From positions 81,644 through 145,643 of the forward strand of contig CAZQYV010000001.1 of NCBI GenBank assembly GCA_964597675.1: a stretch of DNA of 64,000 bases, in the 5' to 3' direction. This DNA is from an uncultured Candidatus Saccharibacteria bacterium. Its GTDB lineage: Bacteria > Patescibacteriota > Minisyncoccia > Phycocordibacterales > DATDWN01. Below, in pieces: positions 11,577 to 61,615 of the stretch. A model generated the notes under the pieces. That model saw nothing but the letters and a program-made list of their open reading frames with translations, searched no databases and was not told the DNA's origin. Numbering within the stretch: position 1 is the first letter of the stretch; each line of letters begins with the position of its first letter. A program made the position numbers and the translations under genes.

Positions 11577-11993
11577 ATGTCTACGATAAATCAATTAGTA
11601 AAGAAAAGCCGACATACGACCAAGAGAAAACCACGTTCTGTGGCTTTGACTCGTGGCTTTAATAACCTCAAAAACCATCCTGTATACTATTCGTCTCCAT
11701 TCAAGCGAGGCGTGTGTACAAAGGTGACTACAAAGACACCAAAGAAACCAAACTCCGCTATCCGAAAGATTGCCCGTGTTCGACTAACAAATGGCTACGA
11801 GGTAACCGCATACATCCCAGGAATGGGTCACAACTTGCAAGAGCACTCAGTGGTTATGCTTCGTGGTGGTAAAGTACGAGATGTTGGTCTACGATATTCA
11901 GTTGTCCGAGGAGTTTTGGATGCAACTGGAGTAGATAAACGAATGAAAGGCCGATCACGATATGGTGCGAAACGACCAAAGAAAGGTAAATAA
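11577..11993 (+). CDS. rpsL: 30S ribosomal protein S12
   Basis: TINQLVKK start, PNSAIRK, and the conserved GH..QEHS and LRGG..DLPGVRY-like blocks. Confidence 0.95.
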
Positions 11994-12004
11994 TTCTAAT
12001 TATT

Positions 12005-12475
12005 ATGCGAAGAAAAGTCACAAACAGAAATATAGTAGGTCCAGATCACGTCTATAATTCAGCAAAAATAGGCAAGTTTATTAACTACGTTATGATTCGT
12101 GGGCAGAAAGCAACTGCACAAGGTATTGTATATGAAGCCCTCGAAAAGATAAAAGATAAGGCAAAAGTAGAGGATCCTATGGAAGTTTTGGATACTGCTC
12201 TTAAAAATACAGGACCTTTGACAGAGGTTCGATCACGACGAGTCGGCGGTGCAAACTATCAGATTCCCCGAGAAGTTCGTCCAGAGCGACGCTCATATCT
12301 CTCTATGAAATGGATTATTGATGCTGCTCGAGCACGAAAGGGTATTCCTATGGCTGAAAAATTGGCAGAAGAAATTATTTTGGCTTCAAAAAATGAAGGT
12401 GAGGCAGTAAAGAAGCGAGAAAACACTCACAAAATGGCAGAAGCAAACAAGGCGTTTGCCCACTTTGCATGGTAA
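12005..12475 (+). CDS. rpsG: 30S ribosomal protein S7
   Basis: S7 family sequence; position immediately after rpsL. Confidence 0.95.
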   Translation: MRRKVTNRNIVGPDHVYNSAKIGKFINYVMIRGQKATAQGIVYEALEKIKDKAKVEDPMEVLDTALKNTGPLTEVRSRRVGGANYQIPREVRPERRSYLSMKWIIDAARARKGIPMAEKLAEEIILASKNEGEAVKKRENTHKMAEANKAFAHFAW

Positions 12476-12648: not shown

Positions 12649-15600
12649 ATGTCTCTATTCAATCGTATTCGTACCCTATTATTAATCTGTGCTCTCATCT
12701 TTGCAGGGAGTGTTGCACTGCACACCATACACGCACAGTCATCTGGCTACACACCAGTGTCAGTCAACTCTCCCACCAACACCTCACTCAAAGTGACAGC
12801 AACACCTCTAGAGTTAAACAACACCACAAACATGTGGTCCTACAAGATAGACTGGAAGAGAACACGTAATGCACAAGGTTCTATATCTATTGCAGAAGAG
12901 TCATCTCCTACAACTAAAGTCCTCTCACTCTCTCCTGCATCACAAGAGGGAAGTCAGACTGTCACACTCAAACCCTCTACTACATACAGAGTGAAGTTCT
13001 ACAGTACAACGGGATATGGTGGAACACTCATCTTGAGCAAAAAGATGACAACTCTCGCTACATCTGATGAGGATCCTGACCTAGAGGACGATGTGGTGAA
13101 TACAGATACTTCTATCACAGGTCTTCAAACGCAGATTGCATCTCTCCTTGCACAGATCAATGAACTCCGAGCACGATTAGCGGGGGGGACACCTGTGACT
13201 ACTAGCACCAGTTCAAGTCCTGCTGTTGTGACTACAACAGTATCTACAGGCACTGGGAGTTATGATCCTGCGGTGGATAACAGATCAACCAACACATTTT
13301 ACATTGCACCTAAGTCACAGGTAAAAACAGGTAGCAAACCTGCCTATTTCTTTGTGCGTATCGGTAAATATGGAAGTCAGAGCAGTGCTATATCAGAATT
13401 TAAAAATGTACCAAAAGGTATGAATGTCACTTTCTATAGGTTAGATAAAGATAGGATTGACCCTTCATGGTATTCAGGAGAGAAATTACCGGTTGATCAA
13501 TATTCATATACAGGAACTAGTTTTCCAATATTTGCGTATCTTAAATCAGTCCAACCATACCCATTGGCAAAATGGCTTGGGACGTATCAGCGTTGGTTAA
13601 AACCTGATGAAAATATGGCCAGAAGCCAATTTGGCGGACCTAATATTATTAACGACGGCACAGCTATTCTTAGGTCTGGAGAAATGGGGCTGTTAAAAGT
13701 TGATACAGATACAGATTTTACGGCTGGACCTGGGACATATACTATTACAGCAGTCGAGAGTACTAATCAAGGTTCAGATATTGCGGGACAATATAATTCA
13801 TCGGCTACGAAAAAAGAAGTAACATTTAGTGTTGTAATCGGTGATCAGGTGGCAATGTGTCTCAGTGATTTAAAGACGTGGCCAAGTCCAACAGCAAAAA
13901 ATTCTAAAACACTTCCTGATGCATTTAAACTATCTGGCGATCCTGGAAGATTTAATGATGCCTGTGATCCAAGTATTGGCGCAAATGCTTCAGGATTTCC
14001 AAATTTTACTGACAGAAAGAAGCCGTTATTGCAGGATTGTGTTACTAAAGCACAAAAACAAGCAGATGCTCTCGGTGTTCCCATGTCTTGTTCTATCATT
14101 ACAGAGGCAAGTGGTGGTTATTTCCGAGCTGGCTGTATAATCACTGGTACTGGCTATGAATTTCAAGCAGCACAATTGGTTGGAACAGGACAAGTTGGTA
14201 CAAATCAGCAGTATTCTCAGGGTAGTTGGAGAGATGTAGAGAGGACAATTCTTCAAAGACAAGCAGAAAAAGTGGCTGATCGTGGATATGTATATTATGA
14301 TAACGACTCAAATGTTTGGCGAGCAATGAATCAGACTGTAGCAGACGCACCAGCATCTTGTGATAAGTTGCTCGATGTTGATGTTAAAAGCGTTAATAAA
14401 GAATGGAATATTTCCATTCATGCTAAGTCACTGACAGAAGGTTCTGTTATTCCAATCGAAATTGTTGCACACCCATCGGTTAAATCAGTTAGTCTATATC
14501 TGCTTAAAGATTATACGAATGGTTCGAACGCAAGAGAGTGGTGGAATGATGAGTATGCCAAACTTTCATCAGCAACTTCTTGGAGTTCATGGATTGGTGA
14601 GAAAAATGCAGCTCAATCACCACAAAGAAATTTAATTGGATATCCAGAATATCATCCACAGGTTGCGTTGACTATGCAGAGAGTCAACTTGGTAAATGGT
14701 AAGGGTACAATACAGTGGACTGTTCCTTCTAAGCTTGAGCCATATCAAGAAATGGGCTGGAACCAAGGAGGACAAGGCGGTTTGCAGCCAGCCGTTCAAT
14801 ATAGTATTAGAGCGATAGCAGACAATAGTATATGGTCTGATAGTCCTAGTTTTACTATATTATCTAATACTCAATCATGTAACTTACTCGAGGGTACAGC
14901 ATGTGATTCATCAAAGGTTACTGAGTCTGTGCAGTCCGGTTCATCTGGAGGTTATGCATTATGGGTAAATGGCCGCGATTTGTATAGGTCTTTCGGTGTA
15001 ATGGGTCAAGGAGTTGCTCCTCTAGATGTTCGAATTACAACTGCTGATGCAACATATAAAACTGGAGATCCTCATCCAAGTAGTTCTGTTCCACTTCCTG
15101 TTCCAGTAACGGCAGGCAAACCAATTCAGATTTCAGGATACATGTTTAATAATTCGACCAAAAAAGTTGATATTGATCTGTTAAATATTGGCACCCCTCT
15201 GTGTCAAAGCAGTGTCAACCAAGCGTATCAAGTGTTCCATGCTTGTGAGCAAGAATATTATTCAAAACCAATAGTGACATGGTCAATTGCTCGGGATATA
15301 CCATCACGCATTATAACTGATTCATTAGGATATAATACATGGTTCTTTAATCACATCTTTACAGTACCATCTGATGCGATTGTTCCCGGTAAATACGTCA
15401 TTCGCATAACCGATCCTGATTTCTTGTATAGTTATGCTGGACAGGAGAGAGGAACAGCTATATTTGGATTTCAGGGTGGTGTAGCATTTAGTCCATCATT
15501 TGAGGTGATCGGTTCATCACAGCCTGCTACAGGACAGACGCCAACTCCGACAACACCTTCAACACCAACTAGCGCAACACCAGTTTCTAATGCTTCAGGT

Positions 15601-15882
15601 GTGGACGGATTCTCTTCAGTATGTGAATCTACATCAACCTTCTGGTTTAGAAACAACGCATCGGCATATAATCTATATCGAAACACAACAAATAATGTTT
15701 CGACTGCACAGAAAATCTTGAGTAACATATCTTATATGCCTGGGAGTAGTACGGGCGGGTATGTTGATAAACCGCAGAGAGGAACATACTTCTATTGGGT
15801 AGAAAATGTTGGAAGTACTGTAAAAGCCCCTTCTGCAAAGAATGCAATAGATGGTGTACCGGTCATGTCATGTCTCTTCTAA
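12649..15882 (+). CDS. large secreted protein, paralog A (1077 aa): signal peptide, shared Fn3-like N-terminal module, coiled coil, Thr/Ser linker, divergent large C-terminal domains ending in a second Fn3-like domain
   Basis: Signal peptide MSLFNRIRTLLLICALIFAGSVALHTIHAQ; about 110 aa module shared with the two downstream genes; Y-x-Y-x-V beta-sandwich signatures. Confidence 0.7.
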   Translation: MSLFNRIRTLLLICALIFAGSVALHTIHAQSSGYTPVSVNSPTNTSLKVTATPLELNNTTNMWSYKIDWKRTRNAQGSISIAEESSPTTKVLSLSPASQEGSQTVTLKPSTTYRVKFYSTTGYGGTLILSKKMTTLATSDEDPDLEDDVVNTDTSITGLQTQIASLLAQINELRARLAGGTPVTTSTSSSPAVVTTTVSTGTGSYDPAVDNRSTNTFYIAPKSQVKTGSKPAYFFVRIGKYGSQSSAISEFKNVPKGMNVTFYRLDKDRIDPSWYSGEKLPVDQYSYTGTSFPIFAYLKSVQPYPLAKWLGTYQRWLKPDENMARSQFGGPNIINDGTAILRSGEMGLLKVDTDTDFTAGPGTYTITAVESTNQGSDIAGQYNSSATKKEVTFSVVIGDQVAMCLSDLKTWPSPTAKNSKTLPDAFKLSGDPGRFNDACDPSIGANASGFPNFTDRKKPLLQDCVTKAQKQADALGVPMSCSIITEASGGYFRAGCIITGTGYEFQAAQLVGTGQVGTNQQYSQGSWRDVERTILQRQAEKVADRGYVYYDNDSNVWRAMNQTVADAPASCDKLLDVDVKSVNKEWNISIHAKSLTEGSVIPIEIVAHPSVKSVSLYLLKDYTNGSNAREWWNDEYAKLSSATSWSSWIGEKNAAQSPQRNLIGYPEYHPQVALTMQRVNLVNGKGTIQWTVPSKLEPYQEMGWNQGGQGGLQPAVQYSIRAIADNSIWSDSPSFTILSNTQSCNLLEGTACDSSKVTESVQSGSSGGYALWVNGRDLYRSFGVMGQGVAPLDVRITTADATYKTGDPHPSSSVPLPVPVTAGKPIQISGYMFNNSTKKVDIDLLNIGTPLCQSSVNQAYQVFHACEQEYYSKPIVTWSIARDIPSRIITDSLGYNTWFFNHIFTVPSDAIVPGKYVIRITDPDFLYSYAGQERGTAIFGFQGGVAFSPSFEVIGSSQPATGQTPTPTTPSTPTSATPVSNASGVDGFSSVCESTSTFWFRNNASAYNLYRNTTNNVSTAQKILSNISYMPGSSTGGYVDKPQRGTYFYWVENVGSTVKAPSAKNAIDGVPVMSCLF

Positions 15883-15941
15883 AGTTAAATTTCAAAAAAT
15901 CTCCCTTTGGGGAGATTTTTGTATATATTAAAAAATATGTC

Positions 15942-16330
15942 TGATATAATACACCAATGAACATATCAAAATATCTTAGTACCCCTTTACTCATCCTCAC
16001 CATCCTTCTTACTACACTCTGGAGTGTACACACCCTACACGCACAGTCATCTGGCTACACACCAGTGTCAGTCAACTCTCCCACCAACACCTCACTCAAA
16101 GTGACAGCAACACCTCTAGAGTTAAACAACACCACAAACATGTGGTCCTACAAGATAGACTGGAAGAGAACACGTAATGCACAAGGTTCTATATCTATTG
16201 CAGAAGAGTCATCTCCTACAACCAAAGTCCTCTCACTCTCTCCTGCATCACAAGAGGGTACACAGACTGTCACACTGAAACCTTCTACTACATACCGAGT
16301 GAAGTTTTATAGTACAACGGGGTATGGAGG
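15942..16330 (+). repeat. about 390 bp segment (promoter, signal peptide, N-terminal module) nearly identical to 18770..19158; a 220 bp core is also shared with 12731..12950
   Basis: Direct nucleotide comparison shows only a couple of mismatches over hundreds of bases. Confidence 0.8.
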
Positions 16331-18722
16331 AACAGTTATATTAAGCAAGAAACTTACGACATTGTCTTTTGACGATGAACAGCCAGATATTGATGCAACC
16401 TATGTGCAGATAAAACCAGCAAATATATTGCAGACACAGATAAGTGAATTACTTGCGATTATTGCACGATTACGTGCACAACTTGATGCAATATCAATTT
16501 CAACCACAACCCCTCGCATACAACCGCCACAGCCAGCCCTGTGTACTATGGAAGTACGTCTCTGTCCGGACGGTATAACTTATGTTGGACGCACAGGTCC
16601 ACAGTGTGAGTCTGCACCATGTCCTGTAAGTCCAAGTGTTCCATCAAGTCCTGTAAATGTACAAAATACGGTAGTAGTATCAAATAAAAGTGATGTCACT
16701 GTAACCAATTACCCGATGCAAATAGGTAGACCATTTAAGCAGGGTGAGATTGTGGGATATCCTAGTGTGTCGATAAATGGGTCGACTGTACTTACTCAGG
16801 CAGATGTAAAAAATCGATGGTCAGACGGTAGTGTAAAATTTGCAATACTTTCTTTTGTTCTACCGAATTTATCAGCAAATTCTACATTAACATTAGCATT
16901 TTCTAATCAATCGTCTGGTAACAATACTGCGTTGACGAAAAGCCAAATGCTTGGAACCAATTACAATTTTGATGCTCAAATAAAATTGACTAGTGGAGGT
17001 AATACAAAGATGGTATCTGCACGAGACATGCTATCCAATGGTGATTATGTGGTATGGACGAGTGGACCCGTGGCCACAACGATTATTCTTGCCGATCATT
17101 CTGCTGATAGAAAATATGATATGGGATTTGATTCTCACAAATCATTTAGACCAATTTTCGAAGCAACATTTTGGCCAGCAACAAATCAAGTAAGAGTAAG
17201 ATATATTGGTGAAAATAGTAATACAAAATCACTCCAAGATATACAATATGACCTTGCTTTGACACTTGGTTCAGTAAATCCAAAGTCTGTGTATAGTCGA
17301 GCAGGGTTGGCCCATCCTTTGCTCACTCGTTGGACAAAAGTTTTTTGGCTAAATGGTGCACCAAATCAGAAAATCAATGTCGATAATAATTTAGCATATC
17401 TCAGTCAGACAACATATTTTCCAGTGTTTGATATGACAGTTAGTGTTCCGGATGAAGTTGTAGCCTCTGCATATAGTTCTTGGCAAAATAATCCACACGA
17501 CCTATACGATTCTGGTGGTTGGACAAAATATATGCCAACAACTGGCGGAAGGTCAGATATTTCACCATTTACCAATTGGACAATGCGTTGGTTATATACA
17601 GGTGATTGGCGTACACGAGAGATTGCTCTGGGAATGGGTGATTTGGCTGGAGCATGGCGCTTGCATGCTCGTGAAGGAGACTCAACAAAAAAAATAGATA
17701 AAGCACAGACTCAATCTGGACTTACTTTGCCGATATCGGTGTATGCATATCCAAATCTATGGCTGCCCGACAACAACGGTTCCTATGGACAATTAGCAAT
17801 TCCGAACGCTCGGGTGGTTGATAACGGCTGGGTGGCTGATAATGCTCACCAACCGGATCCATTTTATGCCGAGTATGTGCTGACTGGTGATCATTGGTAT
17901 CTAGAAGAAGCGCAGATGTGGGCTAGTATGAGTGCCTTGGCAAACTGTCCCGGAAGTGCACAGTGGTGTCGCGGTTCGGGAATGGCGGGACTACAAGATC
18001 AGGTACGTGGTGATGCATGGGCATTCCGTAATCGTATGAATGCTGCTTTCATCACTCCAGATGATATGCAGACACTCAAAAACTTTTATACTAATATGGT
18101 CAATGATGTTTTGGCTTTTTGGGAAGGGAAAGCTGGAATTACTGGCACGGGGTTTCAAAATACTACTGAATGGAAATGGGCAAACACAAATACGTACAAG
18201 GTTGCACGAACAAACCCGCTCCATTTTTGGTCAATTGATGGTGCTCCACCATACTATTATGCTCCATGGCAGCAGTATTATCTTTTGACAGTGCTTGGAA
18301 TAGCAAAAGAAAGGGGATATGCGACCCGTCCGTTATTTGATTTTCTCAGTACTATGCTAACAAAACAAATATCAGCTGAGCGGTATAATCCATTCAATTT
18401 GGCATCATATTCTATTCAGGTTTCGGATGCAAAAGGAAATTGGTACCCTACATGGGGAGATGTACAGGCGGCAAACGTTGACCGTGACTATATGAAGGCA
18501 ACTGGTGATTTTTTAGCAACTAATAATGGTGCATATTATCCAATACTTGCAACAGCCGCTTCTTCATTTATGACATCTACTTCAGATGGTATGTCTACAT
18601 GGAATTTCTTGAAGACTAATGTGAAAGATAGTTCATTACGTAAATTACTAACCGTACCGGGTTGGTATACGAGTTACTATGATGGTACTGGGGAACTTGG
18701 ATGGAATATTATTCCACGTTGA
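15957..18722 (+). CDS. large secreted protein, paralog B (921 aa): same N-terminal module, a 4-Cys CTME[VA]RLCPDGITYVGRTGPQC module, then a divergent C-terminal region of unknown (possibly carbohydrate-active) function
   Basis: N-terminal 130 aa nearly identical to paralogs A and C; TATAAT 6 nt upstream of the ATG; C-terminal Trp-rich region. Confidence 0.7.
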   Translation: MNISKYLSTPLLILTILLTTLWSVHTLHAQSSGYTPVSVNSPTNTSLKVTATPLELNNTTNMWSYKIDWKRTRNAQGSISIAEESSPTTKVLSLSPASQEGTQTVTLKPSTTYRVKFYSTTGYGGTVILSKKLTTLSFDDEQPDIDATYVQIKPANILQTQISELLAIIARLRAQLDAISISTTTPRIQPPQPALCTMEVRLCPDGITYVGRTGPQCESAPCPVSPSVPSSPVNVQNTVVVSNKSDVTVTNYPMQIGRPFKQGEIVGYPSVSINGSTVLTQADVKNRWSDGSVKFAILSFVLPNLSANSTLTLAFSNQSSGNNTALTKSQMLGTNYNFDAQIKLTSGGNTKMVSARDMLSNGDYVVWTSGPVATTIILADHSADRKYDMGFDSHKSFRPIFEATFWPATNQVRVRYIGENSNTKSLQDIQYDLALTLGSVNPKSVYSRAGLAHPLLTRWTKVFWLNGAPNQKINVDNNLAYLSQTTYFPVFDMTVSVPDEVVASAYSSWQNNPHDLYDSGGWTKYMPTTGGRSDISPFTNWTMRWLYTGDWRTREIALGMGDLAGAWRLHAREGDSTKKIDKAQTQSGLTLPISVYAYPNLWLPDNNGSYGQLAIPNARVVDNGWVADNAHQPDPFYAEYVLTGDHWYLEEAQMWASMSALANCPGSAQWCRGSGMAGLQDQVRGDAWAFRNRMNAAFITPDDMQTLKNFYTNMVNDVLAFWEGKAGITGTGFQNTTEWKWANTNTYKVARTNPLHFWSIDGAPPYYYAPWQQYYLLTVLGIAKERGYATRPLFDFLSTMLTKQISAERYNPFNLASYSIQVSDAKGNWYPTWGDVQAANVDRDYMKATGDFLATNNGAYYPILATAASSFMTSTSDGMSTWNFLKTNVKDSSLRKLLTVPGWYTSYYDGTGELGWNIIPR

Positions 18723-18784
18723 TAGTACTAAAATTTTTGTTTAGATGGATATTGTAGGATGTGTTTATGTGTTATAATACACCA

Positions 18785-20173
18785 ATGAACATATCAAAAT
18801 ATCTTAGTACCCCTTTACTCATCCTCACCATCCTTCTTACTACACTCTGGAGTGTACACACCCTACACGCACAGTCATCTGGCTACACACCAGTGTCAGT
18901 CAACTCTCCCACCAACACCTCACTCAAAGTGACAGCAACACCTCTAGAGTTAAACAACACCACAAACATGTGGTCCTACAAGATAGACTGGAAGAGAACA
19001 CGTAATGCACAAGGTTCTATATCTATTGCAGAAGAGTCATCTCCTACAACCAAAGTCCTCTCACTCTCTCCTGCATCACAAGAGGGTACACAGACAGTCA
19101 CACTGAAACCTTCTACTACATACAGAGTGAAGTTTTATAGTACACCAAACTACACAGGCACTGCTATTTTGAGTAGGAGAATGACAACACTTTCAATATA
19201 TGATGAAGAGCCAGATGTTGAAAATATCATACCCCCTGTTTCCATGGATTCAAGTATAACTAATCTTCAGTCACGTATCTCTGAATTGTTACGTATGATA
19301 GAACAATTACGAGGACAAATTGGTCGCAGTGTATCTTCGTCTTCTACCGCAACAAGTACAGCCACTACAACAAATCCTCTAATTTCACTTCCGCAACAAC
19401 CTGTAGCATGCACCATGGAGGCACGCCTGTGCCCAGATGGTATTACATATGTAGGACGAACCGGCCCGCAGTGTGAATTTGGAGCATGTCCTGTAAAAAA
19501 ATGTGATACTGGATTACTCTACATGCCATCATGTTCTGGCGTACCTGTTCAAAATCCAAACACATGTGAAATAACGTGTCAGTCTAGTGCACAGTCAGCA
19601 CGAGTAACAATTACAACAAACTATAGCGAGCCACTTCTTTTGGGTTCATATAGTAATTTGTCATTTCAGGTATCATTGCCACAAAATGTAAATCCAAATC
19701 CTGACTATACATTCAAGTTAGTCGGTAGTATTCCTGGTATGATTTTTGAAAATATGTGGTGTGACCAAGTGGGTTATGGAGGAATCTGTCCTAAAATGGT
19801 AAGTGTATCAAGTGTCATGTATCTTGACGGCAGACCAACTCAAGTGGGAATATATCCCATTACTCTTGTTGCCACAGATCAATATGGTAATACAGGATCA
19901 AAAACTATAAACATAGAAGTGGTTAGTTTGAAACCGTTACCACTTATTACTCAATGTCTCTATGCTGCACCACCAGATGGTTGTAGTTATATTCCCGGAC
20001 CGAATTATAATCCTCAGACAACATGCGGTATGATTCTTTCCTGTAATGCAGAGACAGCATGTCAAAATGTTGAAGTGGGTGTAATGCGAACTTGCTTGAC
20101 AGGATATGTTTCAAAATTAAATCCAAAAACGTGTATATATGAGTGTGCACCTGTTGGTAGCAGTTCAGAATAG
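18785..20173 (+). CDS. secreted protein, paralog C (463 aa): same N-terminal module and Cys module, with a Cys-rich C-terminal region
   Basis: Start at MNISKYL, identical to paralog B including the upstream tataatacacca; the ORF track starts 24 nt earlier at 18761. Confidence 0.7.
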   Translation: MNISKYLSTPLLILTILLTTLWSVHTLHAQSSGYTPVSVNSPTNTSLKVTATPLELNNTTNMWSYKIDWKRTRNAQGSISIAEESSPTTKVLSLSPASQEGTQTVTLKPSTTYRVKFYSTPNYTGTAILSRRMTTLSIYDEEPDVENIIPPVSMDSSITNLQSRISELLRMIEQLRGQIGRSVSSSSTATSTATTTNPLISLPQQPVACTMEARLCPDGITYVGRTGPQCEFGACPVKKCDTGLLYMPSCSGVPVQNPNTCEITCQSSAQSARVTITTNYSEPLLLGSYSNLSFQVSLPQNVNPNPDYTFKLVGSIPGMIFENMWCDQVGYGGICPKMVSVSSVMYLDGRPTQVGIYPITLVATDQYGNTGSKTINIEVVSLKPLPLITQCLYAAPPDGCSYIPGPNYNPQTTCGMILSCNAETACQNVEVGVMRTCLTGYVSKLNPKTCIYECAPVGSSSE

Positions 20174-20272: not shown

Positions 20273-22414
20273 ATGAATCGAGATTATCCACTAGAGCATG
20301 TAAGAAACTTTGGTATTATTGCCCACATAGACGCAGGTAAGACAACGACATCTGAAAGAGTGTTGTTTTATACAGGTATGACTCACAAAATCGGTGAGGT
20401 ACATGAGGGCGAGACTGTAACTGACTGGATGGAACAGGAGCGAGAGCGAGGTATCACTATTACCGCAGCCGCAATTACATGTTTCTGGCACAAGACAGAT
20501 ACTGAAAAGAAACCAGAGACTATGTTTCGATTCAATATTATTGATACTCCTGGACACATTGACTTTACCGCAGAGGTAAAGCGATCACTTCGTGTGCTTG
20601 ACGGTGCGGTAGTGGTTTTCGACGGTGTGGCTGGTGTGGAGCCTCAGTCAGAAACAAACTGGCGATACGCCGATGATGGCAATGTCCCACGAATTTGTTT
20701 CATCAACAAACTCGATCGTATGGGAGCATCATTTGAGCGATCATACGCATCTATTCTAGATAGACTAAATAAAAATGCTGTTCGTCTCCAGATTCCTATT
20801 GGACTTGAAGAACATTTTGCTGGTGTTATTGATCTCCTTAAAATGAAGGCATTTTACTTTGAAGGCAACATGGGCATGAATATTCGTGAGGAAGAAATTC
20901 CAGCAGAATATCTTGATGAGGCGAACAAATACCGTGCAGAATTGATTGAAAAAATTGTTTCAGAGGATGACGAGGCCATGAGTGCATATCTCGATGGTAA
21001 AGAGCCTTCATATGATGAATTAAAGAAAATACTTCGAAAAGCAACACTTGCTGTAAAACTTATTCCAGTTTTTGCAGGGTCTGCACTCAAAAATAAGGGC
21101 GTACAACTAGTGCTCGATGGTGTGGTGGACTATCTCCCATCTCCACTTGATATTCCTCCTGTTGTTGGTACAGATCCAAAGACAGGGGAGCCAGTTACTC
21201 GACATGCGTCAGATACAGAACCATTTTCGGCCCTTGCTTTCAAACTTCAAAATGACCCCTTTGTTGGGCAACTAACATTCTTCCGTGTCTATTCTGGAAC
21301 AATCGAGGCTGGAACATATGTATACAACTCAACTACAGGAGAAAAAGAGCGACTGGGACGTATTGTGCGCCTTCAGGCGGACAAACGAGAAGAGGTAAAG
21401 AAAGTATTTGCAGGTGAAATTGCAGCGGCCGTAGGACTGAAGTCAGCAAAAACATCACACACACTCTGTGATGAAACAAATTCTATTATTCTCGACCCAA
21501 TTAAATTTGTTGATCCAGTGGTTTCACTTCGTATTGAGCCAAAAACAAAAGCAGATCAGGAAAAAATGGGTATGGCACTTAAAAAGTTATCTGACGAAGA
21601 TCCAACATTTATTATTTCATCAAACTCTGATACAGGGGAGACAATCATTTCTGGTATGGGTGAATTGCATCTCGAGATTATGGTTGATCGTATGAAGCGA
21701 GAGTTTTCTGTGGAAGTTAATGTTGGTAAGCCACAGGTGGCATACCGAGAGACAATTTTGGGTACTGCGGAGGCAGAACACAAATATATCAAGCAAACTG
21801 GTGGTAAGGGTCAGTACGGTCACGTAAAGCTTACTCTAAAACCAATGGAGAAGATTGAGGAGGGTGCAAAAATTCCAAAAAATACACACCGATACGAACA
21901 TTTTGAATTTATTGACTCAATCAAAGGAGGTGTTATTCCACAAGAGTTTATTCCTGCAGTTGAAAAAGGTGTACAAGAGGCAATGGAGCGCGGTATTGTT
22001 GCAGGGTTCAAGATGGTTAATGTCTCATGTGAATTGACATTCGGTTCATACCATGATGTGGACTCATCTGAAATTGCATACAAAATCGCCGCTTCACAGG
22101 CCTTTCAAGATGCTGCAAAGCGTGCACGAGCAGTTATTCTCGAGCCGATTATGAAAGTAGAGGCAATTATGCCCGAGCAATTCATGGGAGACGTCACCGG
22201 CTCACTTTCAGGTAAACGAGGACAAATTGAAGGTATGGACGAGCGGGGAATGCTCCGAGTGATCCACGCCAAAGTACCGCTAGCAGAAATGTTTGGATAC
22301 ACAACAGATATTCGATCTATGACTCAAGGACGCGGATCAGCAATGATGGAATTTGACCACTATGAGGTAGTTCCTCCAAATGTGGAAAAACAAATCATTG
22401 AAAGTAGAAAATAA
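20273..22414 (+). CDS. fusA: elongation factor G
   Basis: GTPase motifs [14 protein letters not shown] and NKLD; EF-G domain order; 713 aa. Confidence 0.95.
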
Positions 22415-22453
22415 TTCACAGAAAATCCCCACAATTGTGGGGGTTTTCTTTGC

Positions 22454-25402
22454 GTGATAGATGAGATGGTATATAATAAATACATGAGCAGACTCTCTAA
22501 CATTACGGGTGGATTATACCACCCAAGCGCTGAACCAACCGGTTTGGAAAATTCTCAGAAATCTCCGGTTAATCAAGAAGATTTTGATATTCTAAATAAA
22601 CAAAAGGATCCTTCTCTAGTCAATAGTGATACGAACACAGTATTCACGTTTAAACCACTGACAGAAATTTTGCCGGAGGATGAAAAAAATAATGAGTCTG
22701 GTGATAAAGCAAAAAATTTGCATGTTGTCGTTGACAATACTGTACAAACAGAAAAGGAAACACCAAAAGACTTAGAAGAAAAAACTATTGAAAAACGACC
22801 TCTACCATCTTCGGAGTTATTGTCTTGTTTAGATGAAATTGAGAGTGGAGGAAAAACAATTCGCTCATTGAGACATCAGGCAGAAAAAGGAATACCTATT
22901 AATATCCCTTCTCTTCTTGATGCAATTCGTATTTCAAACACGACGGGTCTTATATCAAAAGGAGAGAGAACTAGAATCGAACGTATATTGATTAGGGAGG
23001 GCATCATAAACCTTAATCAAGAAAAGATCAGCGAGCCAACTAAAATTTTTCATACTGGTCAAAAAGTTCGTCTTGCCCTTAGTGAGGGATCAATTCATGC
23101 AGGCCCCGTTTATACTATACGGAAAGTAGTTGGGGATGCTGCTTTTTTAGAAGGACGTACACAGCCAGTTCCAATCGAAAGCCTAAAAGAGACTGATGAG
23201 TTGGCGGAAGATATAAAAGACCTTGAATCAGAAAAAAGACAATTTCTCTTTGGAAATAAAGATGCAACGAAAAAGGATATTGAGTGGTACGATACCGAAA
23301 TAAATAAAAAAAGGAATCAATTGCAGGAAAGGGATCACCCTGGTATCTCGGCTACCACCGAAACTCCTACTAGCAGTATGGACACGGCAGATGTTCAACC
23401 AGTAGTCGATTTAGCGAGTACTATGTATGGTCCTCGTGCGACAGATGAGGAATTAAATGAGTCAATTGAGATTTCAGTTGAGAACTCGCTTCGAGAGGCA
23501 CGTTCGGCGTATGCAACATTATTGACTGAGCACAAAAATAAGATACGAGAGAGCAAATCACGATTCCAGAAAATTATGGATGATCTTGGTGTTGATATCT
23601 CTCGAAAAATGCCAGATATTCCAATGTCTGCTGAATTACTGAATGCGGAAGAGGAATATATATTAGCTAAGAAAAACAGAAACTTTGCATTGTTTGGTAA
23701 AGGAGAGGTAAAAACAAGAAAAAATCTAGATGGAAATGAGGAAAGTTTCATTTTTAATCCAGAGATTATTAATGCATCAGAACGAGAATATGATATTTTG
23801 AAAAAACAGATTATTGATTCATTACCTCAAAAAGAAAAAAATCTTGCTCAGAGAGCTTTGAAAAAATGGACAAATCTTCCTTTACCGGTTCGCGTCGGTA
23901 TTACATCAACTCTTTTTGGTGTTGGTCTTGGGGTTGGTGCCGGTATGGGTGCTTTTGGTGTTGCTGCATATTCAGGGTATCGTGCGATAAAAGCCGTTGC
24001 TGGCGCAGAGGTTTCTACTGGTGTTGGTTTTACACTCGGAAAGTATTATGACAAAGTAAATAAAAAAACACACGAAGGTGTGTTGGGTGAATATGGTACA
24101 GCAATCGATGGGGGTAACTTTGAAGAAAAAGAACGTCAATTAATGCGATCATTTGAAAAAGAGGAAGAGACAAAAAAGAAGCAAGCACTTAAAATAGGTG
24201 CCGCTATGGCCGTGTCCGGTGGAGTTTCCACAGCATTGCTTGGTGGTGTGTTTAAGCCATCAGCATCCAGTGTAGTAGAGTCAGGCAGTCCAAAGGTCAG
24301 TGGCGCCATTGATAATTCAAAAGGTGCTGTCAGAGGTGTTGACGGTATTCCAAAACCCAATATTCCAACAGAAGCACCATCTTTATCAAAAATAGCAGAA
24401 GTGAAAATAAAGCCAGCTGGGGTTGAATTGTCATCCCGAGGATTTATACAAACATTTGATGATTTAAAAAAGAAACTTATTGAAGAGTATGGTGGAGCAG
24501 ATAAAGTACCAGAAAAAATAAAAGTAAATATTTTGAATAAACCATCTACTGAACTCGCACAAAAATTTGGTTTTTATGATGCCCAAAAGGGTTTGTCAGG
24601 TATGGGTTTGAAAGGTGAACATCTTTCTATTGATTCCAGTGGTGATTTGGTATATGAACATTTAGACAAGTCAAAAGATGTTATGCTCGAGGGTCATACC
24701 GGCAATATTCATACGTTTGATGGAACCATGGCTCACACAGGTCCTGCAGTTGATACTATCTCAACTCCAAAACCATTTGTTGCGCCAGATTCACTTTCTC
24801 GTCCACATGTTGATGTACCACAGGTTGCAGAAGGCGATTTTACATCAATTATAGATACACAACCAGATATGCCACATTTGACACCAGATATCATGGGACA
24901 ACAGATTGGCCAAACTGTTGAATACGCAAATATGAAATTCAATATCGCTAATATTGCAGATCAAGGTAAGGTCCTGCTGACCCCAGAGGGGACACAGATC
25001 GGGCACGAGGGAATGGTTGGGGGAATGAAGCGCTGGATACTTGAACCAAAATTTCAGGATGGAGATAATTTTAAGGGTATTCGTCAGGCATTTAATACTA
25101 TTACACATGGTCAGATTGAAGCAGTGGACATAAAAGGGGTGACATCCAAGGTTATTGATTTCGAAAAAGGGTCACAGATAGAAATAGTAAAAGGCCTAAA
25201 GGTAGATAATCCAAATGCATTGACTATTTTACTGAATGGTAAGGAAGTTGCAGAAGGCACAGTGACAGCAAATGGTCCAAGCCTTCATTTACTCAAAGAC
25301 ATACCAAAAACAGGTCCGTTTTTTGCTGATAATGTCTATGAACGGGCTTTTAAATCAAAAGAACTTAAAAAGGTCCTCAATGAGTTTGTTATTACTACAT
25401 AA
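22454..25402 (+). CDS. large Lys/Glu-rich hypothetical protein with a Gly-rich TM segment, inserted between fusA and tuf
   Basis: 982 aa; TM at LPLPVRVGITSTLFGVGLGVGAGMGAFGVAAY; coiled-coil-like charged N-terminal half; no family recognised. Confidence 0.55.
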   Translation: MIDEMVYNKYMSRLSNITGGLYHPSAEPTGLENSQKSPVNQEDFDILNKQKDPSLVNSDTNTVFTFKPLTEILPEDEKNNESGDKAKNLHVVVDNTVQTEKETPKDLEEKTIEKRPLPSSELLSCLDEIESGGKTIRSLRHQAEKGIPINIPSLLDAIRISNTTGLISKGERTRIERILIREGIINLNQEKISEPTKIFHTGQKVRLALSEGSIHAGPVYTIRKVVGDAAFLEGRTQPVPIESLKETDELAEDIKDLESEKRQFLFGNKDATKKDIEWYDTEINKKRNQLQERDHPGISATTETPTSSMDTADVQPVVDLASTMYGPRATDEELNESIEISVENSLREARSAYATLLTEHKNKIRESKSRFQKIMDDLGVDISRKMPDIPMSAELLNAEEEYILAKKNRNFALFGKGEVKTRKNLDGNEESFIFNPEIINASEREYDILKKQIIDSLPQKEKNLAQRALKKWTNLPLPVRVGITSTLFGVGLGVGAGMGAFGVAAYSGYRAIKAVAGAEVSTGVGFTLGKYYDKVNKKTHEGVLGEYGTAIDGGNFEEKERQLMRSFEKEEETKKKQALKIGAAMAVSGGVSTALLGGVFKPSASSVVESGSPKVSGAIDNSKGAVRGVDGIPKPNIPTEAPSLSKIAEVKIKPAGVELSSRGFIQTFDDLKKKLIEEYGGADKVPEKIKVNILNKPSTELAQKFGFYDAQKGLSGMGLKGEHLSIDSSGDLVYEHLDKSKDVMLEGHTGNIHTFDGTMAHTGPAVDTISTPKPFVAPDSLSRPHVDVPQVAEGDFTSIIDTQPDMPHLTPDIMGQQIGQTVEYANMKFNIANIADQGKVLLTPEGTQIGHEGMVGGMKRWILEPKFQDGDNFKGIRQAFNTITHGQIEAVDIKGVTSKVIDFEKGSQIEIVKGLKVDNPNALTILLNGKEVAEGTVTANGPSLHLLKDIPKTGPFFADNVYERAFKSKELKKVLNEFVITT

Positions 25403-25411
25403 TATTATTAT

Positions 25412-25711
25412 ATGAACATCGTACCAAAAGAAATACTCGAGGAGTGGGGACTGTCCTCCCTTGACGAGCAAAAACAGATCGAGATTATCGATCGGATCGG
25501 GCGGATGCTGTATCAAGCCATTTTGGTGCGCTCTCTCGACATCCTATCTGATAAAGAACAGACCGAATTTGACCTCCTGCTCGATGAAGATGGTACAACT
25601 CCCGAACATGTCTTGGCTTTTCTCAACAGTAAAATACCCACATTTGAGCAACTGGTTATTGAAGAACGTCACAAATTAAGGGATGACCTTTTAATCCCTG
25701 CTCACGCTTGA
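25412..25711 (+). CDS. small hypothetical protein (99 aa)
   Basis: ORF immediately after the 982-aa gene; acidic; no motif. Confidence 0.4.
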   Translation: MNIVPKEILEEWGLSSLDEQKQIEIIDRIGRMLYQAILVRSLDILSDKEQTEFDLLLDEDGTTPEHVLAFLNSKIPTFEQLVIEERHKLRDDLLIPAHA

Positions 25712-25875
25712 CTATTCTCTTGTTTTTGTCTAGTATGATGAATATCGTATATTTTTGCGATTGGCTTTCTTTTGCTAATTGCTAGGGCACAGTTGCGTTT
25801 CTCGAGGATTGTGCTTTTGCAGTTAGTCTGAAGGCGCGGAGATTAATTATTAAGTCATCTAATTACTATAAACAT

Positions 25876-27075
25876 ATGGCAGCAGATTTTGATCGATCAA
25901 AGCCACACGTTAACGTTGGAACAATTGGCCACGTTGACCACGGCAAGACAACTTTAACAGCAGCAATTTTGAATGTACTTGGCCGAGCAGGCGAAGGATA
26001 TTCTTCAAAGGTAAAGGGTGTTGACCAAATTGACTCAGCTCCTGAAGAAAAGGCACGAGGAATTACTATCGCCCTTTCTCACAACGAGTATGCCACACCA
26101 TCTCGTCACTATGCACACGTGGACGCACCAGGTCACGCTGACTACATCAAAAACATGATTACAGGTGCTGCCCAAATGGACGGTGCTATTCTCGTGGTAG
26201 CAGCTACAGACGGCGTTATGCCACAAACTCGAGAGCACGTTCTTCTTGCAAAGCAAGTGGGTGTGCCAAAGATGATCGTATTTTTGAACAAATGCGACAT
26301 GGTACCAGATCTTGAATTGATTGATTTGGTTGAAGAGGAGGTACGTGAGCTTCTTACAAAACAAGGTTTTGATGGTGCAGGTGCACCAGTTATCCGTGGA
26401 TCAGCCCTAAAGGCACTTGAATCAGCAGATAACAACGACGAATGGGCAAAGAAAGTTTTGGATCTTGCAAATGCACTCGATACATATTTCCCAGTTCCAG
26501 AGCGAGATTTGGACAAGCCATTCCTTATGCCAGTTGAAGACATTTTCTCTATTGAAGGCCGAGGTACAGTGGTTACTGGTCGTATCGAACGAGGTATTGT
26601 CAAAGTTGGTGAAGAAATCGAGTGTATTGGTTTGAAAGACACTATGAAATACACTGTGACTGGTATTGAAATGTTCAACAAGTCACTTTCAGAAGGTCAG
26701 GCCGGAGACAACGCGGGTATTTTGCTCCGCGGTGCCAAGAAAGAAGATATTCACCGAGGTCAGGTCTTGGCAAAGCCAAAGACAGTGACTCCACATACAG
26801 AATTTACAGCTGAAGTTTACATCTTGAAGAAAGAAGAGGGTGGACGACATACTCCATTCTTCTCTGGATACAAGCCACAATTTTACATCCGAACAACAGA
26901 CGTAACAGGAGATGTGACATTGAATGAAGGTGTCGAGATGGTTATGCCAGGAGACACAGTTACATTCAAGGTCAAGCTTGTTGCTCCAGTTGCGCTCGAG
27001 GAAAACCAGCGATTTGCTATTCGAGAGGGTGGCAAGACAGTGGGTGCGGGAGTTGTAACCAAAATCGTCGCATAA
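25876..27075 (+). CDS. tuf: elongation factor Tu
   Basis: [18 protein letters not shown] and NKCD motifs; 399 aa. Confidence 0.95.
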
Positions 27076-27211: not shown

Positions 27212-27592
27212 ATGACAACAAAAGAAGCCACAAAAAAGGTTGTAACGAAAAAAGTCGCATCAAAGACGGCCGGAAAGTCCGACGTGATTTCTAAGTTGCG
27301 CATTCGTGTTCGGGCATACGAGTACAAGATCCTTGATCTGTCTGTAAAGCAGATCATTGATACTGCGCTCCGTTATGACGCTAAAATTGAAGGTCCTATA
27401 CCTCTACCAACAGAAATAAAGAAATATACTGTCAACCGATCATCATTTGTTTACAAAAATGCTCGAGAACAGTTCGAGATGCGTACTCACAAGCGAGTGA
27501 TTGATATATTGAATCCAAGTCCAAAAATCATGGAGGCACTGACGAATATGTCGTTACCTTCAGGAGTCAATATTGACGTGAAGATTATATAG
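27212..27592 (+). CDS. rpsJ: 30S ribosomal protein S10 with a Lys-rich N-terminal extension
   Basis: S10 core IRIRVRAYEYKILD...NIDVKI preceded by about 25 extra residues. Confidence 0.9.
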   Translation: MTTKEATKKVVTKKVASKTAGKSDVISKLRIRVRAYEYKILDLSVKQIIDTALRYDAKIEGPIPLPTEIKKYTVNRSSFVYKNAREQFEMRTHKRVIDILNPSPKIMEALTNMSLPSGVNIDVKII

Positions 27593-27635
27593 CGATACGA
27601 AGTAACGAATGGGTTACGAATTGCTACGAATAAAC

Positions 27636-27672
27636 AAAAAACCGCCCTGAGCTTGTCGAAGGGGCGGTTTTT
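27636..27672. terminator. rho-independent terminator after rpsJ (bidirectional)
   Basis: aaaaaccgccctgagcttgtcgaaggggcggtttttt. Confidence 0.7.
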
Positions 27673-27686
27673 TGTGGAGACATTAG

Positions 27687-27938
27687 TTACTCTGTTGTCT
27701 CTCGTAATCTACTATCAACATCATCTATCATTCTTTGAATCATTTGTTGTTCTCTTTGTACATCGGCTATTTCTCTTTTACCTTGCTCAGCAATGTCCAA
27801 GTCTGCACCGTACCTGGTTCTTATCGAATTCTCTTTGTTTATTAAAGCTTGAAGTTGATTTTCATACTTTGATCTTTCATCAAAAAGAACACTTCTTTCT
27901 GGTGTTTCAAAACTCATGTTTCCTGATTCCATTCCCAT
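27687..27938 (-). CDS. small coiled-coil hypothetical protein (83 aa)
   Basis: ORF convergent on the rpsJ terminator; charged, helical composition. Confidence 0.3.
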   Translation of the reverse strand: MGMESGNMSFETPERSVLFDERSKYENQLQALINKENSIRTRYGADLDIAEQGKREIADVQREQQMIQRMIDDVDSRLRETTE

Positions 27939-28040
27939 ATTTTTAAATTAGTTACTAATACTCATAATTATAGTGGGTGAGGGGAGGCAGGTCAATTATT
28001 CTTGTACTGTTAGACACCGAGTGTCTAACAGTATGGACAC

Positions 28041-28512
28041 TCTATTAGAATATCAAAAATTCTTATCCCTCGCTTTGCTCGGGATCTGCAAATTCTCATG
28101 CTTCGGACTACCTCAGCATCCGGAATTTTCATAGTCGGCGCCTTTGGCGCCTCGTTGAAAATTCGGACTTGACAAATGGGTGGGGGATAGATTATACTGG
28201 TACCAGTGGATGGGTAGAGGGGTCTGGAGGTAAGGTGTTGGCTCAGCCACCCTCCTCCAGACCGCCTGGTCCTCTCACTGTTCTTTCGTTTCTTGTCTGA
28301 TACTTTTGTATCAGATACCAGTCGCAGTCTCTCTTCGGAGGGGCTGTTGTTTTTTTTGTAATTTTTTCTTATCCCTCACTACGTTCGGATATTTGAAATT
28401 CTTATACTTCGGATTACCTCATCATCCGGAAATTCTTATCCATCGCTTCGCTCAGGATCCGGAATTTTCATAGTCGGCACCTTTGGCTCCTCGTTGAAAA
28501 TTCGGACTTGAA
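28041..28512. repeat. repeat-rich non-coding spacer: two copies of a 55 nt imperfect-hairpin unit (28122-28175, 28458-28512) plus tandem 30-35 nt sub-repeats, and a central hairpin cluster ending in a T-run (28210-28340)
   Basis: ccggaattttcatagtcggcgcctttggcgcctcgttgaaaattcggacttga occurs twice; aaattcttatcc...gatc-like units occur three or more times. Confidence 0.6.
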
Positions 28513-28605
28513 ATAAAAAAGGATATCTGCTAGTATAGCCACATTGCGTATTAGAGGCCTTCCCGCCTCTTTGTCGTTCAAAACATTTATATACAATTTC
28601 GTATT

Positions 28606-29220
28606 ATGAAATACCTTCTCGGAACAAAACAAAATATGACCCAAATCTTTGATGATGCGGGTGTCGTACATCCAGTGACTGTCATCAAGACAAGTCCTTT
28701 GGTTGTGACACAGGTCAAAAATGTTGAAAAGGACGGCTATACTGCAGTTCAAGTCGGATACGGTACTCGCCGAGCAAAAAACATAAACAAACCAGAAACT
28801 GGTCAAATGAAAGGTGGTTCATATGCACATCTCAAAGAGTTTCGAGTTGAAGGTGCTCCTACATTTGCTATCGGAGACACCATTGATCTTTCTACATTTT
28901 CTGCAGGGGACACAGTTACCGTTTCATCTATTTCAAAAGGAAAGGGCTTTCAAGGTGTGGTCAAGCGACATGGATTCCACGGTGGCCCCCGATCACACGG
29001 ACAAAAGCATTCAGAACGAGAGCCAGGTTCTATTGGAGGTGCAGGCCGTGATGGAGGACGTGTTGCCAAGGGCAAGCGTATGGCAGGCCGTATGGGAAGT
29101 GACCGCATCACTACAAAAAACCTTACTATTGTTGCAATTAACCCAGAGAACCAAGAAATATTTATTCGAGGAGCAATTGCAGGCCGACGAGGAACGTTAG
29201 TCGAGATCAATGCCGAGTAA
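28606..29220 (+). CDS. rplC: 50S ribosomal protein L3
   Basis: L3 family sequence. Confidence 0.95.
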   Translation: MKYLLGTKQNMTQIFDDAGVVHPVTVIKTSPLVVTQVKNVEKDGYTAVQVGYGTRRAKNINKPETGQMKGGSYAHLKEFRVEGAPTFAIGDTIDLSTFSAGDTVTVSSISKGKGFQGVVKRHGFHGGPRSHGQKHSEREPGSIGGAGRDGGRVAKGKRMAGRMGSDRITTKNLTIVAINPENQEIFIRGAIAGRRGTLVEINAE

Positions 29221-56067: not shown

Positions 56068-56141
56068 GCGCGTGTAGCTCAGTTGGTTAGAGCTCGGAGC
56101 TTATACCTCCGTGGCCGGGGGTTCGAGTCCCTCCACGCGCA
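56068..56141 (+). tRNA. tRNA-Ile with anticodon UAU (reads AUA)
   Basis: Cloverleaf: acceptor GCGCGTG/CACGCGC, D stem GCTC/GAGC, anticodon stem CGGAG/CTCCG with loop CTTATAC, T arm GGGGG-TTCGAGT-CCCTC. Confidence 0.7.
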
Positions 56142-56145
56142 CAAG

Positions 56146-61430: not shown

Positions 61431-61525
61431 TTTCTGGCCACCGGTTTGTCGACAAGCCCTGCTGGGCTAGTAAACCGACAAACCGTTCGAATCTCCCACG
61501 TAAAGCTTCGCTTTACTCGTTCCTG

Positions 61526-61615
61526 CGGAGACGGGGAGATTCGAACTCCCGAGGCCTTTTAAAGGGCCTGCCTCTTTAGCAAAGAGGTACGTTAGACCAC
61601 TCTGACACGTCTCCA
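61526..61615 (-). tRNA. tRNA-Ser (GCU)
   Basis: Acceptor GGAGACG/CGTCTCC, G73, anticodon stem CCTCT/AGAGG with loop TTGCTAA, long variable arm AGGCC/GGCCT, T arm GGGAG-TTCGAAT-CTCCC. Confidence 0.75.

Follow-up and report, generated by a model that had tools for sequence, protein, structure and literature searches.

A clade-fixed two-gene module between fusA and tuf of Zambryskibacteria-like Paceibacteria encodes a predicted membrane-tethered, scaffold-like protein and a DUF5663 partner

We analysed a 64,000-nucleotide stretch of DNA from an uncultured Candidatus Saccharibacteria bacterium (GenBank assembly GCA_964597675.1, contig CAZQYV010000001.1, positions 81,644 to 145,643 of the forward strand; hereafter the window, in whose coordinates all features are given), in which two genes stand between fusA and tuf, the genes for the elongation factors EF-G and EF-Tu. 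With a little better than even confidence, we propose that these two genes form a clade-fixed module with a promoter of its own, which would supply a scaffold-like, usually membrane-tethered protein together with a small partner of the DUF5663 family. The fusA gene (20273-22414, plus strand) is an open reading frame (ORF) of 713 amino acids, 80-90% identical to the EF-G of related loci that carries Pfam EF-G domains, and tuf (25876-27075, plus strand) is an ORF of 399 amino acids, about 90% identical across loci. Between them, at 22454-25711, an earlier note on this DNA had reported proteins of 982 and 99 amino acids. Both ORFs are present: the large one (22454-25402, plus strand) has 982 amino acids when read from a GTG codon, and the small one (25412-25711, plus strand) begins 9 nucleotides past the stop codon of the large gene. 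The observation is thus confirmed; further, the block of about 3.3 kb is indeed extra when compared with the canonical order rpsL-rpsG-fusA-tuf, which is that of the str operon of Escherichia coli.

To place the pair in its genomic context, one genome per GTDB species was scanned with an alignment of the DUF5663 protein, which gave 39 loci in records labelled Zambryskibacteria, Paceibacterota, Parcubacteria or Minisyncoccia and, in several cases, Saccharibacteria. All 39 were consistent with the gene order fusA-large gene-DUF5663-tuf-rpsJ-rplC (about 31 of them with both flanks on the contig, and none contradicting it), and the same order was also seen in the loci L003, L005 and L046. P0199, a divergent member of the large-protein family, lies on its contig between fusA and DUF5663-tuf. 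In contrast, relatives either lack the block that stands between rpsG and fusA in the window or have something else there, L003 having rpsG and fusA adjacent. The comparison of loci thus indicates that the pair is an ancient module fixed across Zambryskibacteria-like Paceibacteria; it is not a recent insert, nor the accessory one for which the earlier note had taken it. An initial word-indexed search with the large protein returned only two near-identical fragments, whereas an exhaustive HMMER search revealed the family: 189 clusters at 50% identity, 86 of them with E < 1e-30, comprising homologs of 800-1360 amino acids that aligned from about residue 330 to residue 970. Some of these homologs lie elsewhere. 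In the loci of P0251, P0236 and P0257 (L047, L048 and L049), the large gene is followed by a DUF5663 gene and then by a gene for a UvrD-type helicase, and in two of these three (L047 and L049) a gene for an rRNA dimethylase is also found downstream; in the locus of P0264 (L050), the DUF5663 gene is located just upstream of the large gene instead. The two genes are therefore adjacent in three genomic arrangements and travel together, which bears out the claim that the small protein is a genuine partner, and the comparison of arrangements indicates that the pair itself is a functional unit, its position in the str operon being a feature of one clade. Further, the gap between the large gene and the DUF5663 gene is -16 to +9 nucleotides in most species, which fits translational coupling.

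We next consider where the large gene begins and how it might be transcribed. Directly 3' of the fusA stop codon, RNA folding and a terminator scan located an intrinsic-terminator-like hairpin with a U-tract (22417-22452, plus strand), in which AAAAUCCCCACA-AUUG-UGGGGGUUUU leads into the U-tract. The hairpin has a folding energy of -20.5 kcal/mol (z -5.75), none of 200 shuffled sequences folded as well, and a similar hairpin with a T-run occupies the position after fusA in 25 of 30 species. A promoter-like element could be read at 22450-22477 (plus strand), consisting of TTGCGT (22450-22455), a 16-nucleotide spacer and TATAAT (22472-22477). The GTG at 22454 falls inside the -35 box of this element, just past the terminator hairpin, whereas an ATG at 22484 stands 6 nucleotides past the -10 box, with no Shine-Dalgarno (GGAGG-like) motif between TATAAT and this ATG. 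The site was not listed by a generic promoter scan, as its -35 box matches TTGACA at only three of six positions. Across loci, the element takes the form TTGCGT-N16/17-TA(c/t)AAT with an ATG 6 nucleotides past the -10 box; more broadly, TTGnnn, a spacer of 16-19 nucleotides, a TAnnnT-type box and 4-9 nucleotides to the ATG of the long ORF were found in 32 of 37 loci, with 6 nucleotides being the commonest spacing. In a position matrix anchored on the ATG, the best-kept bases were A at -11 (97%), at -9 and at -8 (87% each) and T at -7 (80%), and a T-run stands 5' of the -35 box. In the related contig L001, this hairpin, both boxes (TTGCGT and TATAAT) and the 6-nucleotide distance recur, and the gene call there starts at the equivalent ATG. 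Because of this conservation of the promoter and the start of the L001 homolog, we conclude that the large gene most likely begins at ATG 22484 and not at GTG 22454. The ORF of 982 amino acids thus exists as reported, but comparison of about 30 species favours a shorter gene of 972 amino acids (22484-25402, plus strand), and residues are numbered accordingly below. The predicted promoter would position the 5' end of the mRNA at or next to the ATG, and the mRNA is therefore probably leaderless. Among the 65 long ORFs of the window taken as genes, a Shine-Dalgarno-like motif precedes only five, and a TAnnnT box lies 5-8 nucleotides before the first start codon of 21, so that such starts are not unique to the large gene. 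This suggests, as a separate observation, that leaderless or other non-Shine-Dalgarno initiation may be widespread in this organism.

The tuf gene also appears to have its own promoter, given a near-invariant promoter element and a conserved leader. The promoter scan located TTGACT-N17-TAGTAT at 25708-25736 (plus strand), overlapping the stop codon of the DUF5663 gene, and this element (TTGACT-N17-TAnTAT) is nearly invariant across 23 aligned species. It is followed by a 5' leader of about 130 nucleotides containing a hairpin (25776-25826, plus strand; apical loop GTTTCTCGA(A/G)), for which RNAalifold analysis of the 23 species gave 16 base pairs, nine of them with compensatory changes; the apical loop reads GTTTCTCGAAC in most species. 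No Rfam family matched the leader region at gathering score, and we regard the leader as a candidate new cis-regulatory element. No terminator was found between the DUF5663 gene and tuf, so read-through from the pair into tuf is possible. Simple co-transcription of the pair with fusA, by contrast, appears unlikely: the earlier note had expected the pair to share the transcript of the str operon, and the predicted terminator after fusA, the conserved promoter of the pair and the separate promoter of tuf all argue against this. The str operon of these bacteria would therefore be split into separate predicted transcription units.

Selection on the pair was assessed by computing the ratio of nonsynonymous to synonymous substitution rates (dN/dS) gene by gene against the strain L002, which is about 97% identical at the nucleotide level. 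The ratio was 0.064 for the large gene (693 codons), 0.017 for DUF5663, 0.072 for rpsJ and 0 for tuf, in which no nonsynonymous change was found. From these low values we conclude that purifying selection acts on both genes of the pair. Species differ much more in the large protein (25-35% identity) than in EF-Tu (about 90%), and DUF5663 is 55-74% conserved, slightly below ribosomal protein L3 (68-79%). A different picture was obtained with L001 (GCA_020049755.1), in which nucleotide alignment showed that the segment corresponding to 22478-24763 (plus strand; 695-2593 of L001) has been swapped for a divergent allele. The flanks are 97.7% (end of fusA) and 95.3% (last 957 nucleotides) identical, whereas the interior does not align at all apart from 770 nucleotides at 69%. 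At the protein level, the EF-G fragment is identical and DUF5663 identical or nearly so, and the large protein is 44% identical overall, with about 40% over its first 760 or so residues and 97% over its last 215; the L001 allele lacks the domain that we refer to below as D4. Because they are sharp, the boundaries point to recombinational replacement of the allele and not to gradual divergence; the same pattern would result if a metagenome assembler had joined two alleles present side by side.

As a single sequence, the large protein had no match in Pfam, NCBIfam, PHROGs or PADLOC, and sequence and profile searches of the PDB (alignments A1, A2 and A3) returned only matches at chance level. When 132 homologs and 26 C-terminal fragments were searched against Pfam member by member, only sporadic accessory domains were detected. 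The statement that the large protein holds no recognisable domains and fits no described family therefore stood, whereas the small protein is one that we assign to Pfam DUF5663; the same division applies to the possibility that homologs would place the block in a known family, since the family of the large protein is conserved (at least 189 clusters at 50% identity) but unnamed. Further, the large protein had been called rich in Lys and Glu, and at 9.3% and 8.8%, respectively, it is only moderately charged. We examined its architecture with two AlphaFold models, one computed from an alignment of 41 sequences (mean predicted local distance difference test score, pLDDT, 71) and one covering residues 636-972 (mean pLDDT 84). 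A disordered N-terminal tail (residues 1-102, pLDDT < 50) precedes two modules (22796-23194, plus strand), namely helical D1 (residues 105-175, pLDDT about 87-96) and small beta D2 (residues 190-237, followed by helices; pLDDT about 65-91). The sequence conservation of D1 and D2 is low, and the sole hint of a fold for them was a weak Foldseek match to the N-terminal region of Hpy99I (55 columns, E 0.36). After a disordered linker (residues about 286-319, pLDDT < 50) comes a helical core (23444-23878, plus strand; residues 321-465; pLDDT 76-96), which bears the motif AR..YA.....KNK.RE.K..F.K...DLG..KQ.P and ranks with the best-conserved regions of these proteins.

The core is followed by a membrane-anchor region (23894-24253, plus strand), which consists of the hydrophobic segment H1 (residues 471-498), a charged helical hairpin (residues 505-567, pLDDT 92-94) and a further hydrophobic segment H2 (residues 569-590), with a weaker amphipathic stretch at residues 501-519. 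H1 has 28 residues, is rich in Gly and Ala and essentially uncharged, and has a mean hydropathy of 1.46 over 41 homologs; the corresponding value for H2 is 1.03. The Kyte-Doolittle hydropathy peaks thus correct the earlier description of a single transmembrane segment, as two hydrophobic segments flank the charged hairpin. An uncharged hydrophobic segment of bilayer length, conserved in the family, is what is expected of an integral membrane protein, and H1 is such a segment. Beyond the anchor lie an alpha/beta domain, D4 (24401-24733, plus strand; residues 640-750; motif VELSSKGFI...LA..FGFYD....SG.GLKGE.L; pLDDT 90-97 in the C-terminal model), and a beta-rich C-terminal domain, D5 (24911-25378, plus strand; residues 810-965; motifs FQDG and LLNGKEIA.G....GP......LK.GWF..D.VYERAFK), for which the same model gave pLDDT values mostly of 84-97 with one block at 70. 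Low-confidence linkers join D4 and D5, and the long linkers before and between these domains are rich in Ser/Gly/Pro and Pro/Glu/Thr. We considered whether D5 is a GNAT acetyltransferase and do not adopt this identity: scores were low, the overlap was partial (60-93 residues) and identity was 5-14%. Motif A (Q/R-x-x-G-x-G/A) is absent from the D5 family consensus, which reads FQDG..Y...R.AF, and neither the Pfam search of 26 members at E up to 1 nor the PDB profile search detected an acetyltransferase. Unlike GNAT proteins of the DfoC, SidF and RimJ/RimL/RimI types, D5 therefore has neither an acetyl-CoA motif nor a sequence-profile match, and it is not treated as a member of that family.

The disordered tail contains two conserved short motifs (22583-22672, plus strand), FDILNKQ at residues 34-40 and KPLTEIL at residues 57-63. 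Among 111 full-length homologs, [FLM]D[IV]L..Q was found in 30 and [KRQ]PT[EDNK][LI] in 27, compared with 0.1 and 0.5 expected from shuffled sequences, which corresponds to a 50- to 300-fold excess. The second motif usually lies 20-29 residues past the first, and the copy in the window has one inserted residue. Conserved peptides in otherwise unconserved disordered tails are typical docking sites, and the two motifs may likewise act as putative docking sites. Next to them, the N-terminal side of the protein varies between homologs: J-like domains are found there in P0190, P0155 and P0119, and TPR repeats in one homolog. The three J-like domains carry HSD or NTD in place of HPD, the tripeptide that J-domain function requires, and the large protein of the window itself has no DnaJ match. 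Because homologs carry modules of a cytoplasmic type and no N-terminal signal peptide could be read in the large protein, its N-terminal half is probably cytoplasmic. Homologs in L022, L043 and L045 are short (361-512 amino acids) but still located between fusA and DUF5663. Both motifs are retained in them, as are D1, the helical core and the last 80 or so residues of D5, whereas the membrane-anchor region (H1, hairpin and H2) is missing together with D4. The family can therefore do without the anchor, and these proteins define a minimal conserved core. Two apparent gene fusions were set aside. The EF-G fusion of L037, a would-be 'Rosetta stone', is an ORF that crosses a run of N in the record. 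In L051 (2420-6193), the large gene of P0195 breaks off past the hydrophobic region and continues in frame as a gene for peptide deformylase, the def part of which begins with its own Met, with D4, D5, DUF5663 and tuf absent downstream; this is a single contig and probably reflects a rearrangement, read-through or an assembly chimera.

The small protein is acidic, as had been claimed, with a net charge of about -11 counted from its sequence. It matched Pfam PF18908 (DUF5663) at 19.2 bits (E 0.0018), below the curated cutoff of 23.7 but over profile positions 1-80 of 84, and most orthologs at 56-74% identity carry a precomputed PF18908 annotation. The 99-amino-acid protein thus resembles the family in spanning 80 of the 84 model positions and in the annotation of its orthologs, and differs in that the window copy itself falls below the cutoff; the family is catalogued without known function. 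A word-indexed search gave 114 relatives at 56-99% identity and a profile search at least 449 clusters, and the mean column identity in a 38-sequence alignment was 68%. The DUF5663 genes of L047-L050 were recovered by tblastn with the window protein at 35-39% identity (E 1e-13 to 1e-22), and the small proteins of L048 and L049 carry an unflagged PF18908 hit. No signal peptide was found in the small protein. A full-text literature search for the name DUF5663 returned no paper and, to our knowledge, the constant pairing of DUF5663 with a large modular protein has not been described. We discarded an acyl-carrier-protein-like reading, based on an 'SLD' motif, as the Ser is Ala in many orthologs and no PP-binding hit was obtained. 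We also note that residues 42-50 of DUF5663 (25535-25561) form the motif LDILSxxEQ, in which most positions are invariant or nearly so and which resembles the (F/L)D(I/V)LxxQ motif at residues 34-40 of the large protein (22583-22603); the likeness could be due to chance, or both motifs could compete for one binding site.

We propose that the large protein would serve as a scaffold or adaptor facing the cytoplasm. It would recruit cytoplasmic partners through the two motifs of its disordered tail and through exchangeable modules on its N-terminal side (a small beta domain in the window protein, J-like or TPR domains in some relatives), and the region of the Gly/Ala-rich hydrophobic segments and hairpin would tether it to the membrane in most lineages. 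DUF5663 would be a putative obligate small acidic subunit, produced by translational coupling and binding the conserved core. Our leading guess for the process served, which we hold with low confidence, is protein biogenesis or some event linked to translation at the membrane; such a link is suggested by where the pair lies, between EF-G and EF-Tu, by the J-like domains of some homologs and by a weak fold resemblance to Rim-type acetyltransferases. Several points weigh against this account. The terminator, the promoter and the leaderless start are all predicted features, based on sequence and its conservation. The number of Lys and Arg residues is 4.9 before H2 and 1.4 after it, which, together with the Ser/Gly/Pro linkers, would put the C-terminal half outside the cell, whereas the short homologs would put it in the cytoplasm. 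A biochemical activity could not be assigned from any homology or fold match, and the link to translation draws on gene neighbourhood, which is weak evidence here, ribosomal clusters of these genomes being often broken up by unrelated genes.

A more specific reading is that the module is a translation or nascent-chain factor, which tethers or modifies ribosomes, elongation factors or chaperones at the membrane and whose position in the str operon reflects this function. This reading agrees with a position between EF-G and EF-Tu that is fixed in at least 39 species, with the presence of an rRNA dimethylase gene two genes downstream in L047 and L049, which belong to a second clade, and with a conservation of DUF5663 slightly below that of L3. 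However, the predicted terminator and separate promoter isolate the module from fusA, and the pair is also found outside any translation operon. The J-like domains of the three homologs, which at first sight favour the reading, have HSD or NTD and not HPD, the resemblance to GNAT proteins is partial and without the Q/RxxGxG/A motif, and the peptide deformylase 'fusion' of P0195 looks like a rearrangement or read-through. We consider this reading unlikely. DjlA, a membrane J-protein, is an example of an anchored co-chaperone with cytoplasmic modules; it resembles the window protein in concept only (a membrane tether with modular cytoplasmic parts, and a J-like domain in three homologs), as the window protein lacks a J domain, is much larger, orders its tether and modules differently and has no sequence or fold relationship to DjlA. 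The topology could also be read as that of an envelope-spanning surface protein with a cytoplasmic N-terminus and with D4 and D5 held outside on flexible stalks, which would contact the wall, a surface or a host and whose alleles would be swapped under phage or host pressure. The distribution of Lys and Arg around H2 indeed favours an inside-to-outside orientation, and the long linkers around D4 and D5, the fast divergence between species, the mosaic allele in a near-identical strain and the LysM/M23 cell-wall genes near some loci would fit. Yet it is the presumably cytoplasmic N-terminal two-thirds that is swapped and most variable, whereas the C-terminal domain is conserved; soluble short homologs, which have neither a hydrophobic segment nor a signal peptide, retain the C-terminal subdomain, which suggests that it is cytoplasmic; Pfam searches of the homologs detected no adhesin, Ig-like or wall-binding domain; and the DUF5663 partner has no signal peptide. 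We regard a surface role as decidedly unlikely.

The pair might, alternatively, be cargo of a mobile element, a prophage or a defence island that landed in the str operon. Phage tape-measure proteins are similarly long and helix-rich with internal Gly-rich hydrophobic segments, a small gene lies next to the large one, DUF5663 had weak PHROG matches (E 0.005 and 0.06), and a mosaic allele occurs in a related strain. The chromosomal position within a ribosomal cluster is nevertheless fixed in 39 species with conserved flanks, the G+C content of the block (0.36-0.41) does not set it apart from its neighbours, and both genes are under purifying selection. For the large protein, PHROGs and PADLOC gave no match, a tblastn search of 50,697 phage records found nothing and IMG/VR yielded no relative. 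Neither an integrase gene nor a flanking repeat stood out in the lists of ORFs and sequence, a dedicated repeat search not having been made; an origin as mobile cargo is accordingly very improbable in our judgement. The earlier note had itself raised the possibility of a frameshifted fusion of unrelated ORFs, and with it that of a non-coding ORF may be considered. The absence of database annotation is the only point in favour of such an artefact, and its probability is practically negligible, as full-length homologs of 800-1360 amino acids align from about residue 330 to the C-terminus, residues of about 330-970 are collinear in more than 100 clusters, the dN/dS of the large gene is 0.064 and the AlphaFold domains are confident. 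Finally, the scaffold reading can be extended to an unrecognised housekeeping complex specific to the candidate phyla radiation (CPR; Patescibacteria), whose genomes are small and have roughly half of their genes uncharacterised. A leaderless-translated, usually tethered scaffold would, with DUF5663, dock a conserved cytoplasmic machine via FD(I/V)LxxQ and KPTE(L/I) and so couple translation or protein biogenesis to the membrane, replacing factors that reduced genomes lack; a ribosome carrying its nascent chain, the elongation factors or DnaK could each be the machine so docked. We offer this extension as a speculation that is quite improbable as a whole.

With regard to the surrounding genes, the window resembles the canonical str operon in that rpsL (11577-11993), rpsG (12005-12475), fusA and tuf keep their usual order on one strand, and the S10 cluster with rpsJ (27212-27592) and rplC (28606-29220) comes after them. 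It differs in the two-gene unit with its own predicted terminator and promoter between fusA and tuf, in the predicted promoter and structured leader of tuf, and in three paralogous, apparently secreted proteins between rpsG and fusA. The latter are encoded by three large ORFs (12649-20173) of 1077, 921 and 470 amino acids, at least two of which have a signal-peptide-like hydrophobic N-terminus. At their N-terminal ends all three share a region of about 125-240 amino acids at 72-90% identity, which marks them as recent tandem paralogs; none of them matched Pfam or NCBIfam, and relatives have rpsG and fusA adjacent or another short sequence at this position. The gap between rpsJ and rplC (27593-28605) is unusual in its length of about 1 kb and contains an ORF of 83 amino acids on the minus strand (27687-27938), strong promoter-like sites on the minus (27995-27967) and plus (28169-28198) strands and a terminator-like hairpin (28324-28347). 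Small unannotated genes are also present in this gap in related loci. In L052, the contig of P0155, the interval from rpsJ to rplC holds a HicA toxin gene; in the same contig (6892-8644), tuf is split into several short ORFs, probably by long-read sequencing errors. Elsewhere in the window, ARAGORN detected two tRNA-Ser genes about 300 nucleotides apart (61114-61201 and 61525-61614, minus strand) with the anticodons ACT, which is unusual, and GCT, and a tRNA-Ile gene with the anticodon TAT (56068-56142); Rfam confirmed the tRNA-Ile and the first tRNA-Ser.

Overall, we conclude that the pair is a well-defined conserved hypothetical module and not a demonstrably new mechanism. Lineage-specific genes in ribosomal operons and tethered scaffolds with a small partner are known kinds, and the family of the large protein itself matches nothing described; literature searches on fusA/tuf in Parcubacteria and on leaderless genes in Patescibacteria returned nothing relevant. 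The analysis provides a corrected start, a predicted leaderless mRNA, two putative docking motifs, a natural minimal core and a putative obligate partner as handles on the module. Being fixed in its clade, under purifying selection and equipped with a near-consensus predicted promoter of its own amid a ribosomal cluster, the pair appears to be a core component of these cells and not strain cargo. Should a link between the membrane and translation or protein biogenesis be borne out, the module would represent a new component of cell biology specific to the CPR; otherwise it is an ordinary conserved hypothetical pair.

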